In this document: one piece after another, positions 3,659 through 63,319 of the stretch
Numbering within the stretch: position 1 is the first letter of the stretch
How the letters are laid out: the number at the start of each line of letters is the position of its first letter
The notes under the pieces: model-generated
Told to the model about the DNA's origin: nothing
The model's input: only the letters and a program-made list of their open reading frames with translations
The model's database searches: none
Program-made: the position numbers and the translations under genes
Virus record (IMG/VR): IMGVR_UViG_3300045988_100778
Location: 1-64,000 of that record
DNA length: 64,000 nt
Strand: one strand, 5' to 3'
DNA from: a virus

Positions 3659-3982
3659 AAAGAGAGAAACACCCTCCACGATACCTTACAGACCATATTT
3701 TATTATTAACCCGTTATACATTTGTTACAATGGTAATGAAGAGTGTCAAGGAGAAAAAGCAATGATAAGAAGAACCGGAAAGGGAACACGGACTGCACCA
3801 TAAAGGAAAAGAAAGGGTTGTTATATCCGACCCCTATATAAACAATATTATAAATCGTCAACCTATAATTGTTAATTTGCGAAATGGGAAGGATATATGG
3901 AAGCCGATATGGACGCAAGACGTGTCCTGGCACGGTTCTTGTATCATTGTACAACGTGGAACAATCATAAAAAGACAACATC

Positions 3983-20999: not shown

Positions 21000-21180
21000 T
21001 GGTATAAGAACACCTTTGGTATCGCGTCTTATTGGAGTGAAAAGACATGTGAAAGACCCTATCAGATACCCGAAAATACAATGCGGTTATGAAGGGCTTG
21101 CACAGACCATGTTCGCTACACAATCGGACGCGATGATAAAGGAGCTTATAAAAGAAATGATAAAAACGGTTGGAAAATGA
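20980..21180 (+). CDS. hypothetical protein (66 aa)
   Basis: Internal ATG 20980 (MPEKKIDGIRTPL...) of frame 20794-21180; overlaps the MuF start. Confidence 0.4.
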   Translation: MPEKKIDGIRTPLVSRLIGVKRHVKDPIRYPKIQCGYEGLAQTMFATQSDAMIKELIKEMIKTVGK

Positions 21181-37101: not shown

Positions 37102-37488
37102 ATGGAAAAGTTCTGGGAAAAGACCGGGATTTCCTCTAATAGGGCATTATGGGAATATATGGTGTTTCAAGGGTCAATGATAGAGAACAGCCGATATAAG
37201 GAAATGATGTTTGACCCCTATAATTTGATAGGACCAAAGGCGATAGAGAAATGGAATAAGAGGGGTAAATACCAGGTATTCATAGCCAATAAACGCCAGC
37301 GAGAAAGAGGATGGATAAGCCCGTTTAAGGAGAAGGAAGAGGGTTTATCTGAAAGATACAGGGAGATGTTGAGGAAAAAGTATTGGAACAAGGAGAAGGG
37401 GTTTATACTTTGCAGCCAGTACGGAGGATGGTTATTCGACAAAAACAGATGTAAGGATTGTATATTTTACAAGGCTTGTGAAAAATGA
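37102..37488 (+). CDS. hypothetical Cys-containing protein (128 aa)
   Basis: First ATG of frame 36946-37488 after the previous stop; C-terminal CKDCIFYKAC. Confidence 0.5.
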   Translation: MEKFWEKTGISSNRALWEYMVFQGSMIENSRYKEMMFDPYNLIGPKAIEKWNKRGKYQVFIANKRQRERGWISPFKEKEEGLSERYREMLRKKYWNKEKGFILCSQYGGWLFDKNRCKDCIFYKACEK

Positions 37489-37534
37489 CATACTAAAAGT
37501 TTATGTTATCAAATAATATTTGTATATTTGTGCC

Positions 37535-37594
37535 ATGAAAAAGACAGTGGGTAACTATATAGAACTTTGCACTAAAAATTATATAAATAAATAG
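37535..37594 (+). pseudogene. 19-codon stub, the displaced original 5' end of the HNH/NinG-like gene
   Basis: TATATTTG-TGCC-ATG AAA AAG ACA GTG ... gives MKKTV. AAGACAGTG recurs at 38871-38879 inside the start of the downstream HNH gene. Confidence 0.45.
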
Positions 37595-38870
37595 GAAATT
37601 TAAAATATTCTATTTATATTTGTGGTATGTATTTAACGGAACAACATATAATAACAGTTAATGATAAGAGGTACAAGGATTTAGACCGGATTTGTTTCTT
37701 ATCCAAGAACTTGTATAATGCGGCTTTATATATCATAAAGCAAGAATTTCTTGTTTCCGGGAAATGGATAAGGTCTGTAGAACTTAATAAAAAGATGGTT
37801 GCAGAAAACAATGTTGATTTTAGGGCTATGAGCGGTTCCTCTTCCCAGCAAATTTTAATGGCTTTGGATAAGAATTTGAAATCTTATTTTTCAGCCATTA
37901 AAGCATGGAAAAGGGATAACAAGAAATTTACCGGATGCCCTAAATTTCCGAAATACAAACATAAGACAAAAGGAAGAAATGTATTTTCTTATTCTTATGT
38001 GCAATTCAGACATAAAGGAGAATATATTTACTTTCCAAAGAAAGAAGGTCTGAAACCGTTAAAAACGAAATGCAAGGAAGGAACAGTTAAGCAAGTCAGA
38101 TTTGTGCCGAAAGCAGATTGTTATGTAATAGAATTGGTATATGAATCAGAAGTAAAGGAACAGTTACTAAACAACAATAGATATATGTCTATTGATTTGG
38201 GGGTTAACAATCTTGCTTCTATTGTAACGAATACGAGTAACAGGGCTGTTTTGGTAGATGGCAAGAAATTAAAGTCTATCAACCAGTATTATAACAAGAA
38301 AAAATCTAAAGTTCAATCACAATTAAAGAAAACAAATGGAAAGGAAAATTCGAGACGGCTAATGAACCTTACAAGAAAAAGAAACAATAAGGTCAAGGAT
38401 TATTTGCATAAGGCAAGCAAGGAAATTGTAAGCATGTGCTTGAAAGACAACATAACTACATTGATAGTAGGACATAATGACGGATGGAAACAAGAAGTAA
38501 ATATGGGTAAAAGAAACAATCAGAATTTTGTTTCAATTCCGTTTGAAACTTTCATATCAATGTTAAGGTATAAATCTGAAAGACAAGGACTAAGATTTGT
38601 TGAAATAAACGAATCTCACACGTCAAAATGCAGTTCTTTAGATTTAGAAGAGGTAAAACATCATGATAGTTATATTGGAAAGAGAGTAAAAAGAGGTCTT
38701 TTCAGAACAAAGGACGGAATTTTACTCAATGCAGATATAAACGGAGCCTATAATATTATGAGAAAAGTAAAGGGGGATGCAGCAATGCCACCCTATAGAG
38801 GGTTTGGGTATAACCCAGTTAAGAAATTTATTAACAAATAGATACAAGTGTAAACATGTATATAATTACC
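37550..38870 (+). mobile_element. tnpB cassette bounded by the 9-bp direct repeat AAGACAGTG
   Basis: The repeats lie at 37541-37549 and 38871-38879. The interval contains only a promoter and tnpB. Confidence 0.55.
37627..38841 (+). CDS. tnpB: TnpB (IS200/IS605-IS607 accessory RNA-guided nuclease family)
   Basis: SIDLGVNNLASI (RuvC-I Asp), VGHNDGWKQEVNMGKRNNQNFVSIPF, EINESHTSKCSSLD and GKRVKRGLFRTKDGILLNADINGAYNIMRK (RuvC-III). 404 aa. Confidence 0.85.
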   Translation: MYLTEQHIITVNDKRYKDLDRICFLSKNLYNAALYIIKQEFLVSGKWIRSVELNKKMVAENNVDFRAMSGSSSQQILMALDKNLKSYFSAIKAWKRDNKKFTGCPKFPKYKHKTKGRNVFSYSYVQFRHKGEYIYFPKKEGLKPLKTKCKEGTVKQVRFVPKADCYVIELVYESEVKEQLLNNNRYMSIDLGVNNLASIVTNTSNRAVLVDGKKLKSINQYYNKKKSKVQSQLKKTNGKENSRRLMNLTRKRNNKVKDYLHKASKEIVSMCLKDNITTLIVGHNDGWKQEVNMGKRNNQNFVSIPFETFISMLRYKSERQGLRFVEINESHTSKCSSLDLEEVKHHDSYIGKRVKRGLFRTKDGILLNADINGAYNIMRKVKGDAAMPPYRGFGYNPVKKFINK

Positions 38871-39296
38871 AAGACAGTGAAGGAAGAAGTAAGACCGTGT
38901 GTTTCTTGTAAGGAGAACCATTTCATATACGACCGTAACAGATGGTTATGTAAGGAATGCTACGACAATAGAAAGAAATTGAAGTTGAACCGCGCTTCAT
39001 TGAAGGAAGAGGAAAACAGGCTTAACGAAGTGTTTGTTAAGGTATGGGAGGAGAACCCCCACTATTGTTTCCATTGTGGAAAGTGGCTGGGGCTTGAAAT
39101 GAAACCTATTTTCTTCTCCCATATATTGAGTAGGGGCGCGCATCCCGGTTTACGTTGTGACCCGGAAAACATAGTTTTGGCATGTATGGAATGCCATCAG
39201 ATATACGATTTCGGAGACAGAAACAGTCTGAAGAACCAGATACCGGAAGAGAGGATAGAAAAACTTTTGGAGAAAGAGCATGGGAAAAGATATTGA
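38856..39296 (+). CDS. HNH / NinG-like zinc-binding nuclease
   Basis: CVSCK...CKEC...CFHCG...SHILSRGAHPGLRCDPENIVLACMECH fits the H-x-x-S-R-G ... N ... C-x-x-C-H layout. Confidence 0.55.
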   Translation: MYIITKTVKEEVRPCVSCKENHFIYDRNRWLCKECYDNRKKLKLNRASLKEEENRLNEVFVKVWEENPHYCFHCGKWLGLEMKPIFFSHILSRGAHPGLRCDPENIVLACMECHQIYDFGDRNSLKNQIPEERIEKLLEKEHGKRY

Positions 39297-40643: not shown

Positions 40644-41297
40644 GTGAAAACAAGTAGTAATTTCGTGATTGTCTATGACTTTGAAACCGGGGGATTGCCA
40701 AGCAAGGAGAAGCAGGCTTTTTTGGACATCCCTTTGGTAGAAATGGCTATGTCGTGCATAGACATGAAAAAGTTGGAAATAATAGACCGTGCAGAAATGA
40801 TATTCCCGTATAACTACAAGGAAGGACTTGCAGGATATTCGGAGGAAGCAACGGCAGTACACGGCATAACAAAAGAAGTCCAAGAAGAGAATGCGGTGCC
40901 ATTGAAAGAGATATACAGCACTTGCAAGAAATGGTTCGCCAAATACAAGAATCCACGCCAGATGTGTACGCTTGTAGGGCACAATATCGTAGGATTCGAT
41001 AACCCGTTTCTGAAAAACTTCTTCGCCTACATGAACGACGATATAGACAATTACGTAAAATACTACATAGACACGATGCAGTTTGCACACATGGTAGCTT
41101 TGGAGCAGATGGACTACAAGCTGGGCACGTGTTGCCAGGCTGCCGGGATTGACCTTGTGGAAGCGCACAGGGCGCAGCACGATGTGGATGCGAACGCGAT
41201 GTTGTTCATTTCCTACGTGAAGAAGTTAAGGGGTGAAGGCGTGGAAACGGTGGAGAAGAAAGAAAGGAGATATAGAGAGGACTTCCAGTTATGTTGA
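40644..41297 (+). CDS. DEDDh 3'-5' exonuclease (DnaQ-like)
   Basis: Exo I VYDFETGG, Exo II LVGHNIVGFDNPFL, Exo III AHRAQHDVDANA. GTG start. Confidence 0.8.
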   Translation: MKTSSNFVIVYDFETGGLPSKEKQAFLDIPLVEMAMSCIDMKKLEIIDRAEMIFPYNYKEGLAGYSEEATAVHGITKEVQEENAVPLKEIYSTCKKWFAKYKNPRQMCTLVGHNIVGFDNPFLKNFFAYMNDDIDNYVKYYIDTMQFAHMVALEQMDYKLGTCCQAAGIDLVEAHRAQHDVDANAMLFISYVKKLRGEGVETVEKKERRYREDFQLC

Positions 41298-43405
41298 CGG
41301 GTGACGGAAAAGGAATACTTACAAATAATCAGCTTACATATCTGTACAATGCGGTAGACAATATCATAGAGAGACTGCCGGAAAGGGCGCTTAACCAGTT
41401 GTTGGAAGGATATGGAAACGACGTTGATACCATGCTTAGGGAAATGGTGCATCAGTCGGAAAAGGCGCTGTATCTGGGTCGGACGCTGGATTCAGAAAGT
41501 TTATCCTATGTGGATAACGTGAAAGCCTCTATGGACAATACGCTTAAAATATTGTCCCTCAATTATTTCATAACAACCATGTTGCCTAAATTCCGGTTAG
41601 GGTGGCGTAATATAGAGTGGGGAAATCTCACTCAATTATACCCGTGGAGTTGTTATTTATGCGCCCGGGCGAGTGGCAAGTGCATGAGTGCTGATACATT
41701 GGTTGTAATGTATGATGGGGCTTTGAAGAAGATTCAAGATATAGAAGTTGGTGATAAAGTGATGGGTGTTGATTCAACACCGCGTACAGTGCTGCAATTA
41801 CATAAAGGTGTTGCACCTATGTATAAAGTGAGACAGTCCAAAGGAATGACTTATGAAGTGAATGAAGGACACTTGCTTTGCTGTTATTATAACGGTTATT
41901 TCATTGATGTAGAAGTAGATGCTGTATGTAGACAACAGAAAGATATAAGAAAGTTGTTTCTGGGATATAAAGTCAAGAATATAGGGAAAGGAACACCAGA
42001 ATTTGATTATTCTTCATTGAAGATTGAACCTATTGGAGAGGGGGAATATTATGGTTTTGCGTGCGATGGAGACCATAAGTTTTTATTGGAGGATGGGACG
42101 GTTGTACATAACAGTTATCAATGGTCTTATGCCTTTATTCTGTGGCGTTTATGGTCCTACACAAGACCGACTGCATATAGACAAGACACGGTAGACAATG
42201 CCAACCGGAAAGAAACATGCTATATTACCAATACTTTTACACTGGCAAAGGTGCAGATAGCGAAAGTGACGGAAGAGATAGAGGCGAACGACTTAATAAA
42301 GGAAAAACTGAACCCTTATAATAAGGCTTCAATCGGAGAAACAGCCATAAAGACGGAAACGGGGAGTACGCTGCATGTACGCGGTAAGGATTCAATGATT
42401 CGCGGTCTGCATGTGGGGGCTTGCTTGTGTGACGATATGCCGGATGAAAGCTCCCTATATTCGGACGAACAAAGAGAGAAATTGAAAGAACTTCTGAAAG
42501 GTACTATAGAACCGATTGTAGAGCCATACGGTTACTTTCTTGTAACTGGTACGCCTTATTCTTCTGCACCGAATGAATTGTACCAGATATTGAAGGCAGA
42601 CAAGCGTTTCTATTGTTTTGAATATCCGATATTGTTTCCGGATGGCAGACCGTTGGCACCAGACAGATACACGTTTGAACAGATATTGGCGAAAAAGGAA
42701 GAACTTGGAACGATTGTGTTCAACCGTGAATACTTGGTGGTTCCTATCAGTGACACGTCAACGATATTTCCGTATGAATATCTGATGCGTAGCGTTATAG
42801 GAATGGAAACGATACGTTTTGCGTCAAGTATAGACGATTTTCCTTTCAAGCTTACAAGGGTACATATAGGTGTGGACTTTGCGGTTTCCGGTAATATTGG
42901 AGCGGACTATACAGTGTATTCGGTATGGGGCAAAGATGCGATGGATAACTACTATTTGTTGTACTATTACCGGAAGCGCGGTATGTCGCATAACGAACAG
43001 GTGGATAAGATTGTACAGCTTGACCGACTTTTCCACCCCAATAAGATACGGTGTGAGGCAAACGGTTTCCAGTCCATATTGTCCGGACTGGCAAAGGAAA
43101 GAGGGCTTAAGAATATAGAACCATTTACGACAACGGAAGGAAACAAGAAAGATTTGTATACTGGACTACCTTCTTTGTCCGCAATGTTTGAAAGAGGACA
43201 GATAAAATGCCCCTATGCGATAGGAGAAACGAGGCAGGCGGTTGACTTGATGTTCGGTGAATTTTCTTCTATTACATTTAGAAGTGATAACGGGAAATTG
43301 GAGGCGGCAAGTGGTCACGATGACGTGGTAATGTCGTCGTTCATTTCCTTAAATAGCTTACGCGAAGACGATAAAGAAGTACAAGTAAGTGTAGAATTAA
43401 TATAA
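41291..43405 (+). CDS. terL: terminase large subunit, interrupted by an intein
   Basis: Walker A ARASGK|S split by the intein; Walker B LHVGACLCDDMPDE; nuclease blocks IGVDFAVSG and SGHDDVVMS. Confidence 0.85.
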   Translation: MLTGDGKGILTNNQLTYLYNAVDNIIERLPERALNQLLEGYGNDVDTMLREMVHQSEKALYLGRTLDSESLSYVDNVKASMDNTLKILSLNYFITTMLPKFRLGWRNIEWGNLTQLYPWSCYLCARASGKCMSADTLVVMYDGALKKIQDIEVGDKVMGVDSTPRTVLQLHKGVAPMYKVRQSKGMTYEVNEGHLLCCYYNGYFIDVEVDAVCRQQKDIRKLFLGYKVKNIGKGTPEFDYSSLKIEPIGEGEYYGFACDGDHKFLLEDGTVVHNSYQWSYAFILWRLWSYTRPTAYRQDTVDNANRKETCYITNTFTLAKVQIAKVTEEIEANDLIKEKLNPYNKASIGETAIKTETGSTLHVRGKDSMIRGLHVGACLCDDMPDESSLYSDEQREKLKELLKGTIEPIVEPYGYFLVTGTPYSSAPNELYQILKADKRFYCFEYPILFPDGRPLAPDRYTFEQILAKKEELGTIVFNREYLVVPISDTSTIFPYEYLMRSVIGMETIRFASSIDDFPFKLTRVHIGVDFAVSGNIGADYTVYSVWGKDAMDNYYLLYYYRKRGMSHNEQVDKIVQLDRLFHPNKIRCEANGFQSILSGLAKERGLKNIEPFTTTEGNKKDLYTGLPSLSAMFERGQIKCPYAIGETRQAVDLMFGEFSSITFRSDNGKLEAASGHDDVVMSSFISLNSLREDDKEVQVSVELI
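41681..42112 (+). mobile_element. 144-aa mini-intein in the TerL P-loop
   Basis: Begins CMSADTLVVMYDG, has block B NEGH, ends DGTVVHN, and is followed by Ser. There is no room for a homing-endonuclease domain. Confidence 0.8.
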
Positions 43406-63263: not shown

Positions 63264-63319
63264 AAAGAGTAACTATATACCTAAACATTCTTGATGTAAA
63301 TGGTATATAGTTACTCTTT
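63264..63319. terminator. perfect 18-bp inverted repeat between convergent fibre-tip ORFs
   Basis: AAAGAGTAACTATATACC (63264-63281) and GGTATATAGTTACTCTTT (63302-63319), separated by a 20-nt spacer. Confidence 0.6.

Follow-up and report, generated by a model that had tools for sequence, protein, structure and literature searches.

A tnpB cassette in a crAss-like gut phage as a putative non-autonomous IS1595-family element with a candidate duplication-derived guide

How does a tnpB gene without a transposase beside it come to lie inside another gene of a phage, between two copies of a 9-bp direct repeat, and what could its nuclease do for such an insertion? The question is raised by a cassette in the IMG/VR virus record IMGVR_UViG_3300045988_100778, positions 1 to 64,000 of which form the stretch analysed here (the window, 64,000 nucleotides). 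In the window, tnpB interrupts a gene for an HNH endonuclease. We propose, with a probability of roughly 0.8, that the cassette is a non-autonomous IS1595 element carrying tnpB and an ω-RNA, that it was inserted in trans and left the HNH gene rescued in frame, and that a guide derived from the duplicated target lets the nuclease promote homing.

Relatives of the locus were collected through the 180-aa protein encoded upstream, and the spacer between that gene and the HNH gene was then measured. In 42 loci the spacer is 60-62 bp and the predicted empty site is present exactly (…TATATTTGTGCC ATG AAA AAG ACA GTG AAG GAA GAA GTA…), and 12 relatives share the insertion of the window with identical junctions. 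Occupied and empty forms differ by 1330 bp, that is, the 1321-bp element (37550-38870) plus nine duplicated bases. The 42 empty and 12 occupied loci, separated by this difference, establish the insertion and the 9-bp duplication, AAGACAGTG, which is read on both sides (Table 1), and confirm the cassette as a genuine mobile-element insertion within a gene of a crAss-like gut phage. From the empty allele it follows that the ancestral HNH protein began MKKTVKEEV, the start that relatives lacking tnpB still have. An initial annotation made from the letters alone had described a solo tnpB cassette with no TnpA nearby, the direct repeat, the recurring box-N4-ATG design and a short stub; each of these statements is correct, and the empty site that it predicted by deleting 37550-38870 in silico is the very allele of the 42 relatives.

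The window phage is crAss-like, with relatives of ~105 kb and a 3426-aa open reading frame (ORF) of the virion-RNA-polymerase size class; the INPHARED phage collection yielded no close relative of it. In a second pair of alleles the window provides the empty form: the flanks of an insertion in the relative L145 overlap by exactly 8 bp on window positions 21152-21159. In L006/L172 (contig 3300045988_092628), the copy at the HNH site is 13 bp shorter (spacer 1378 versus 1391), and its TnpB is 99% identical.

The element is bounded by terminal inverted repeats of ~24 bp. In the window, 37550-37573 and the reverse complement of 38847-38870 match at 19 of 24 positions; across the family, the junction alignment gives the left terminus as GGTAAYTATATA-N4-TTTRCAC and the right terminus as its reverse complement, …GTGYAAA-N4-TATATARTTACC. 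The TnpB relatives in IMG/VR (257, later 341 confirmed stretches) are spread over numerous insertion sites, in phages of several groups. When 40 distinct left flanks are compared, the direct repeats that abut the termini are exact 8-bp copies in 16 cases and near-exact in six, with 9 bp in the window and an apparent 7 bp at one site. The sequence ATTACC, earlier taken for flank, belongs to the element terminus, and the TGTATAT common to both flanks is a coincidence, being part of the HNH −7 box on the left and of the terminal inverted repeat on the right. In INPHARED there is one copy of the element, L001, with 81% identity and in another phage. Its mutated right terminus had suggested an element boundary at 38864, which the family junction alignment overturned.

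Some right ends in the family are irregular. One left junction of a tnpB element continues into various right flanks that are unrelated to each other (L124, L126, L128, L133 and L141), and another left flank is paired with differing right flanks (L125 versus L134/L136). This pattern suggests that the guide side has been rearranged, through recombination between copies, adjacent deletions, or breaks. Odd right ends are also seen in L164 and L183 (about 3700-3760) and in L126, one with an extra nested terminus inside it (…TATGTATATAGGTAACTATATATCAGTTTACTATATACATAATTACC) and another with a tandem TTACC TTACC beyond the terminus.

The same ends bound transposons that encode their own transposase. 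In a scan of one genome per prokaryotic species, the terminus pattern gave many single matches at chance level and 25 loci in which an IS1595-type transposase adjoins the match; ends of the form GGTRAYTATATA-N4-TTTRC flank elements, bacterial as well as phage-borne, whose transposase falls into PF12762. Specifically, a 2295-bp element of Cloacibacterium rupense (L238), with perfect termini (GGTAACTATATATAAATTTACAC) and an 8-bp duplication, encodes a KilA-N passenger and a 306-aa protein that matches Pfam DDE_Tnp_IS1595 (E = 1.4e-44). Autonomous IS1595 elements are present in gut phage contigs as well (216 confirmed); they end almost exactly as the tnpB elements do, and they make exact 8-bp duplications. 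In all, we obtained 41 tnpB-less elements with the same termini and exact 8-bp duplications, 26 of them encoding a transposase; among them are autonomous copies of 2.1-4.8 kb, MITEs (transposable elements of the miniature inverted-repeat kind) of 70-334 bp, and one cargo-only element from Streptococcus oralis. The ISfinder description of the IS1595 family comprises 8-bp duplications, ISNwi1-type ends and passenger genes.

Judged by its ends and duplications, the cassette is to be classed as a non-autonomous derivative of the IS1595 (DDE) family whose cargo is only tnpB and an ω-RNA-like structure. The initial annotation had placed it with IS200/IS605 and IS607 elements and called the duplication atypical; that frame was wrong, and with the IS1595 identity the duplication becomes an ordinary DDE-transposase signature, inverted repeats of ~24 bp and duplications of 8-9 bp being normal there and the 9-bp rather than 8-bp product a minor variant. 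Intersection of the contig lists shows that tnpB-only elements and autonomous IS1595 copies occur together on at least five phage contigs, and this co-residence makes mobilisation by an IS1595 transposase in trans plausible. By tblastn, no tnpB was found among 120 bacterial loci with these termini, and none of the autonomous phage IS1595 elements searched carries tnpB inside. Among the P0111 relatives, a more distant TnpB subfamily (33-54% identity), no IS1595-type ends were found.

Two loci touch on the range of such elements. The S. oralis element (L209, 3026-5755; 2730 bp) has the same termini and an exact 8-bp duplication but encodes no transposase; its only cargo ORF is 770 aa long and of unknown family, and the element is a cargo-only IS1595 derivative outside Bacteroidota. 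On a gut phage contig, L333 (191-1333) holds a different tnpB, with 39% identity to that of the window, ~1.5 kb upstream of an autonomous IS1595 element.

The nuclease gene starts at an ATG (37627) preceded by a predicted −7-box-like promoter, in the same box-N4-ATG arrangement as the old HNH start. In an alignment of the TnpB family (30 sequences, at least 52% identity), D190 (SIDLGVNN; RuvC-I), E329 (INESHTS) and D370 (NADING; RuvC-III) are invariant, and the CxxC…CxxC (C4) zinc finger has been lost. The AlphaFold2 model of TnpB (predicted local distance difference test, pLDDT, 80.7) is matched by Foldseek to Cas12f, ISDra2 TnpB (8h1j, template modelling (TM) score 0.70 on target), ISFba1 TnpB and Fanzor2, which confirms the TnpB fold at the level of a predicted structure.

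The DNA is near-invariant from ~38765 to 38845, synonymous positions included, unlike the coding sequence upstream. In an alignment of the last 270 nt of 29 distinct copies, RNAalifold and a count of pairs reveal a domain of four hairpins (H1-H4) with 99.1% of cells paired and six pairs with compensatory changes; none of 500 shuffles attains these values, and slid controls reach 28-48% pairing. The many G·U pairs indicate an RNA of the + (tnpB) strand. A structured RNA over the tnpB 3′ end, as the initial annotation had anticipated, was found by this comparative analysis; the covariance scan that it recommended gave no ω-RNA family, the Rfam search of 37300-39100 at a permissive threshold returning chance-level matches only. 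A single-sequence fold of 38700-38890 is no better than shuffles (z = −0.6), so that the comparative analysis alone is informative.

The terminal hairpin, H4, sits over the inner half of the right inverted repeat. It is formed in 27 of 28 right ends of tnpB elements (6-7 of 7 pairs) but is missing at their left ends (2-5 of 7 pairs) and likewise at the 72 tnpB-less ends compared, where mostly 2-5 of 7 pairs can form. Its restriction to the right ends of tnpB elements argues that H4 is an addition serving the RNA, not the transposase. Nine nucleotides, ATAATTACC, lie between H4 and the flank.

In systems of the OMEGA type, whose name stands for 'obligate mobile element-guided activity', the sequence directly beyond the right end provides the guide (PMC10691335). 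If a guide were read in this way from the right flank of a transposon that duplicates its target, it would start with the duplication and equal the empty allele. The target-adjacent motif (TAM) would then have to directly precede the duplication on its 5′ side, which in an occupied locus places it 8 bp upstream of the left terminus. The initial annotation had stressed that the right flank matches the reconstructed empty site. The match is real, but it follows automatically from any target duplication and is meaningful only with an adjacent TAM, and at that position the window has AAA, not TAA.

TAA is the trinucleotide that marks this position in the family. It stands directly 5′ of the duplication on the left side of tnpB elements at 32 of 40 distinct sites (80%), on the right side of the same elements at 2 of 44, and on both sides of the 41 tnpB-less elements in 14 of 82 instances (17%), against a background trinucleotide frequency of 2.9%; the difference between 32/40 and 14/82 is significant by Fisher's test (p = 2e-11). 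Where the duplication is clear (23 sites), the trinucleotide is TAA 20 times, CAA twice and AAA once, in the window, and AA occupies positions −10/−9 in all 23. In addition, the first duplicated base is A at 33 of 40 tnpB sites and on 28 of 82 sides of tnpB-less elements. The simplest reading would be that TAA, perhaps TAAA, is the TAM of the TnpB family, and the sites suggest a looser form, NAA followed by A. Insertions next to TAA would persist or spread if their empty allele can be cut by TnpB, and the insertion sites of the family suggest that the nuclease may shape which insertions persist. That TAA might merely be the stop codon of the upstream gene can be dismissed, since its spacing does not vary and neither TGA nor TAG is ever seen in its place; at the target of the L145 insertion, moreover, TAA lies within the 3′ end of an ORF, out of frame, and is not a stop codon.

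The interrupted HNH gene has kept an intact ORF. Its product is NinG/Rap-like, the reconstructed MKKTV… form matching PHROG 5034 (E = 8e-8), and the ORF is 97-100% conserved across occupied and empty relatives. The original N-terminal MK is now MYIIT, encoded by the right inverted repeat. The duplication is codon-aligned (AAG ACA GTG) and the right repeat of the subfamily ends …ACATGTATATAATTACC; ATG TAT ATA ATT ACC joins the duplicated codons in frame, and the HNH ORF therefore stays open from an ATG within the right end of the element, as first annotated. The start codon was not rebuilt for this gene, as had been thought: the right-end ATG variant is found in same-subfamily copies at other sites and so pre-existed. 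The rescue of the start codon is presumably an in-frame accident retained by selection.

Upstream, the old start persists as TATATTTG-N4-ATG (box 37523-37530, ATG 37535). The original ATG now heads a 19-codon stub (37535-37594), in which the left duplication copy follows ATG AAA and which reads into the element and stops inside the left repeat. TAnnTTTG is what we take to be the −7 box of Bacteroidota; no such box was found upstream of 38856 in the window. In the relative L017/L150 (contig 3300045988_085021), occupied at the HNH site, the right-end ATG is TTG, which creates TAAATTTG, an outward-reading −7-box-like motif, and GTG of the right duplication is changed to GTA; the HNH gene of this relative may be expressed differently or be decaying.

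We propose the following course of events. An IS1595 transposase acting in trans, encoded by an autonomous copy that resided in this phage, in a phage co-infecting with it or in the Bacteroidales host, would have made a staggered cut in codons 3-5 of the HNH gene, duplicating 9 bp. The insertion would have survived because the right-repeat ATG is in frame with the duplicated codons, the left part of the gene becoming the stub. The scaffold, which overlaps the tnpB 3′ end and places its last hairpin over the right repeat, would take its guide from the flank, and the bases just 5′ of the duplication would act as TAM. TnpB would then cut empty alleles in co-infecting phages and thereby favour copying or retention of the element. 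That TnpB in this way makes a DDE transposon a homing element among co-infecting gut phages, with the one-sided TAA as its population-genomic footprint, is a claim towards which we lean only slightly.

Several observations weigh against this proposal. Neither the 64-kb window nor those parts of its close relatives that were retrieved yielded a transposase, and about 16 of 40 sites have no matching right-hand repeat. The window site is itself an outlier, with AAA instead of TAA and a 9-bp instead of an 8-bp duplication, and TnpB may cut the empty allele of the window poorly for this reason. The occupied HNH alleles share one common proximal upstream haplotype, which is also present in empty form; a single insertion spread by descent or recombination would fit the HNH site as well as homing, and the haplotype comparison around it did not separate the two. 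Furthermore, the canonical RuvC-II glutamate of TnpB is absent, the segment reading LIVGHNDGW with an invariant G282. An alternative glutamate, E329, lies 46 residues downstream; a 'RIIr' rearrangement in which Glu to Gly is offset by another Glu has been judged likely still active, and DDE-associated TnpBs resemble that of the window in the RuvC-II Glu-to-Gly change with an alternative Glu and in a NADXN RuvC-III (PMC10691335). Finally, TAA exceeds its background frequency in tnpB-less elements too, and the signal is thus partly the taste of the transposase for AT-rich targets.

The last point is the starting point of an alternative in which the IS1595 vehicle holds, but the one-sided TAA is a target preference of the transposase of the tnpB copies and TnpB is a passenger, passive or otherwise used (inter-phage competition, regulation). 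The frequency of TAA on the sides of tnpB-less elements and the AT-rich duplications would suit it, and the window site reached 12 of 54 relatives without TAA. Nearly symmetrical repeats, however, should not give a motif on one side, the side and the spacing are exactly those required for a TAM before a guide that starts with the duplication, and the autonomous phage elements, with almost the same termini, are without the bias. We consider this explanation unlikely.

Alternatively, TAM recognition by TnpB-ω-RNA could steer the IS1595 transpososome to insert at a distance of 8 bp downstream of TAA, which would resemble CRISPR-associated transposons in a minimal form. The strict spacing, the near-universal TAA on the tnpB-reading side and the link of the motif to the presence of tnpB would all be expected, and such steering, if true, would mean that phages naturally couple a DDE transposase with an RNA-guided nuclease without any CRISPR component. 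Before insertion, though, the guide of the donor mismatches the new site, which leaves no RNA-guided step; elements without tnpB produce the same duplications when they transpose; and the pattern is accounted for more simply if selection acts once the insertion has been made. Its probability is, in our estimate, very small.

An IS200/IS605 (IS1341-group) or IS607-type element that owes its movement to a trans-acting TnpA of the Y1 or serine type and bears a 9-bp repeat by chance at an unusual junction has almost no chance of being correct: a solo tnpB with Pfam OrfB_IS605, an ω-RNA-like 3′ structure and no TnpA near tnpB would agree with it, but those elements lack terminal inverted repeats and do not duplicate their targets (PMC13565253, PMC6188088), and here both features occur at many sites, no serine-recombinase TnpA was found in or near the element, the left end is without a subterminal hairpin (one being present at the right end only), the conserved flank motif is 8 bp away from the left end and not abutting it, and identical ends bound IS1595 DDE elements.

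Table 1. Features of the window that bear on the tnpB element, its target and its insertion sites
Feature	Position	Strand	Basis
Ancestral promoter-like −7 box TATATTTG and original HNH ATG	37523..37537	+	same sequence heads the intact gene in 42 empty-site relatives
TAM-equivalent position, reads AAA	37538..37540	+	TAA in 32/40 family sites
Left copy of the 9-bp target-site duplication, AAGACAGTG	37541..37549	+	single copy in empty sites
Left terminal inverted repeat, GGTAACTATATAGAACTTTGCACT	37550..37573	+	in all family copies and in transposase-bearing IS1595 elements
Predicted −7-box-like promoter of the element, TATATTTG, 4 nt before the tnpB ATG	37615..37622	+	sequence; conserved in L001
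tnpB, 404 aa	37627..38841	+	Pfam OrfB_IS605 and Cas12f1-like TNB; family alignment; AlphaFold2; Foldseek
ω-RNA-like scaffold, 3′ domain of four hairpins	38772..38861	+	RNAalifold, covariation
Scaffold hairpins	H1 38772-38794, H2 38800-38816, H3 38818-38835, H4 38842-38861	+	RNAalifold
Right terminal inverted repeat, AGTGTAAACATGTATATAATTACC, holding the HNH-used ATG (38856)	38847..38870	+	junction alignments
Present NinG/Rap-like HNH ORF, 146 aa, MYIITKTVKEEV…	38856..39296	+	PHROG 5034 and HNH families
Right copy of the 9-bp target-site duplication	38871..38879	+	sequence; empty-site comparison
Inferred guide segment AAGACAGTGAAGGAAGAAGT, duplication plus downstream flank	38871..38890	+	OMEGA architecture (PMC10691335); identical to empty allele
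Empty target TAA, then AAGAAATG, of another same-family insertion, occupied in L145	21149..21159	+	L145 flank overlap

Elsewhere in the window, just past the stop of the 3426-aa ORF, there is a 48-bp palindrome (63268-63315; AGTAACTATATACC-N20-GGTATATAGTTACT) that in effect consists of two IS1595-type termini back to back. It extends into the flanks and has no clean duplication, and may be a MITE remnant or a MITE-derived terminator. A 704-aa ORF at 41291-43405 resembles a large terminase with an intein-like interruption (…GKCMSADTLV … VVHNS…).

What a transposon gains from TnpB is understood for IS200/IS605, whose transposase targets the TAM itself and makes no duplication; in prokaryotes, little has been explored of how an RNA-guided nuclease can work together with a DDE transposon whose target is arbitrary and becomes duplicated. 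The family to which we assign the cassette, IS1595 derivatives with tnpB and a putative ω-RNA, offers a natural experiment, since the same ends occur with and without tnpB, in hundreds of copies, in abundant human-gut phages in which empty and occupied alleles coexist. It opens three proposals to direct testing: the duplication as the 5′ part of the guide, TAA as the TAM, and TnpB-driven homing from one co-infecting phage to another. With a 404-aa TnpB, a 3′ scaffold domain of ~100 nt and a short TAM, the system is also a possible editing tool, and its members are markers of mobile-element flux in crAss-like phages.

With the IS1595 family the elements share ~24-bp inverted repeats starting GGnnA(T/C)TAT, 8-bp AT-rich duplications, same-ended autonomous copies with DDE_Tnp_IS1595, passenger genes and MITE-sized derivatives. 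Unlike typical members, the window element is without a transposase, has only tnpB and the predicted ω-RNA as cargo and resides in a crAss-like phage replicon, and the tnpB elements have an extra hairpin over the right repeat and the one-sided TAA. With IS1341-group OMEGA elements of the ISDra2 type they have in common a solo tnpB, a scaffold over the tnpB 3′ end that finishes at the right end, a TnpB fold and, as we propose, a flank-read guide with the TAM 5′ of the empty-site target. The IS1341-group elements, in contrast, have no inverted repeats or duplications and insert as single strands, via Y1 TnpA, directly 3′ of the TAM, their insertion target of 4-5 nt doubling as TAM, whereas in the window family the duplicated 8-9 bp would lie between TAM and left end and the vehicle is of the DDE type.

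DDE-borne TnpBs are already known in prokaryotes at survey level, in transposons with inverted terminal repeats, and solo TnpBs with ends like those of transposase-bearing copies have been proposed to be moved in trans (Altae-Tran et al. 2023, PNAS; PMC10691335). As far as the survey text considered here extends, it names only IS630, does not mention IS1595, and does not contain the duplication-as-guide geometry, a TAM enrichment relative to tnpB-less elements, or empty and occupied phage alleles. TnpB genes of crAss-like phages have been noted solely as 'transposases' (PMC11054128), and our literature search returned no work in which TnpB cargo is connected with IS1595, nor any on the ends of TnpB elements in crAss-like phages.

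Fanzor1 and Fanzor2* ride eukaryotic transposons with terminal inverted repeats and target-site duplications, and Fanzor-only non-autonomous elements occur in an ascovirus (Yoon et al. 2023; PMC10711439). As there, a non-autonomous transposon with inverted repeats resides in a virus and carries nothing but the nuclease, and the repeat is part of the guide RNA scaffold; here the hosts are bacteriophages and the vehicle is IS1595. For Fanzor it has been proposed that the scaffold takes up the duplication (PMC10711439); in the window family the 8-bp duplication differs between sites and must lie in the guide. The proposed homing resembles that of phage free-standing homing endonuclease genes (intronless homing), in which the nuclease, encoded beside its own insertion, cleaves the allele that a co-infecting phage carries in unoccupied form, and repair copies the nuclease gene in (PMC13565253). 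Unlike those genes, recognition would be RNA-guided and reprogrammed with each transposition. Relative to all these systems, what appears to be new is the IS1595 vehicle, a variable duplication as the 5′ part of the guide, a hairpin grafted on the inverted repeat, a one-sided TAA specific to tnpB elements, and the abundance of empty and occupied alleles in gut phages.

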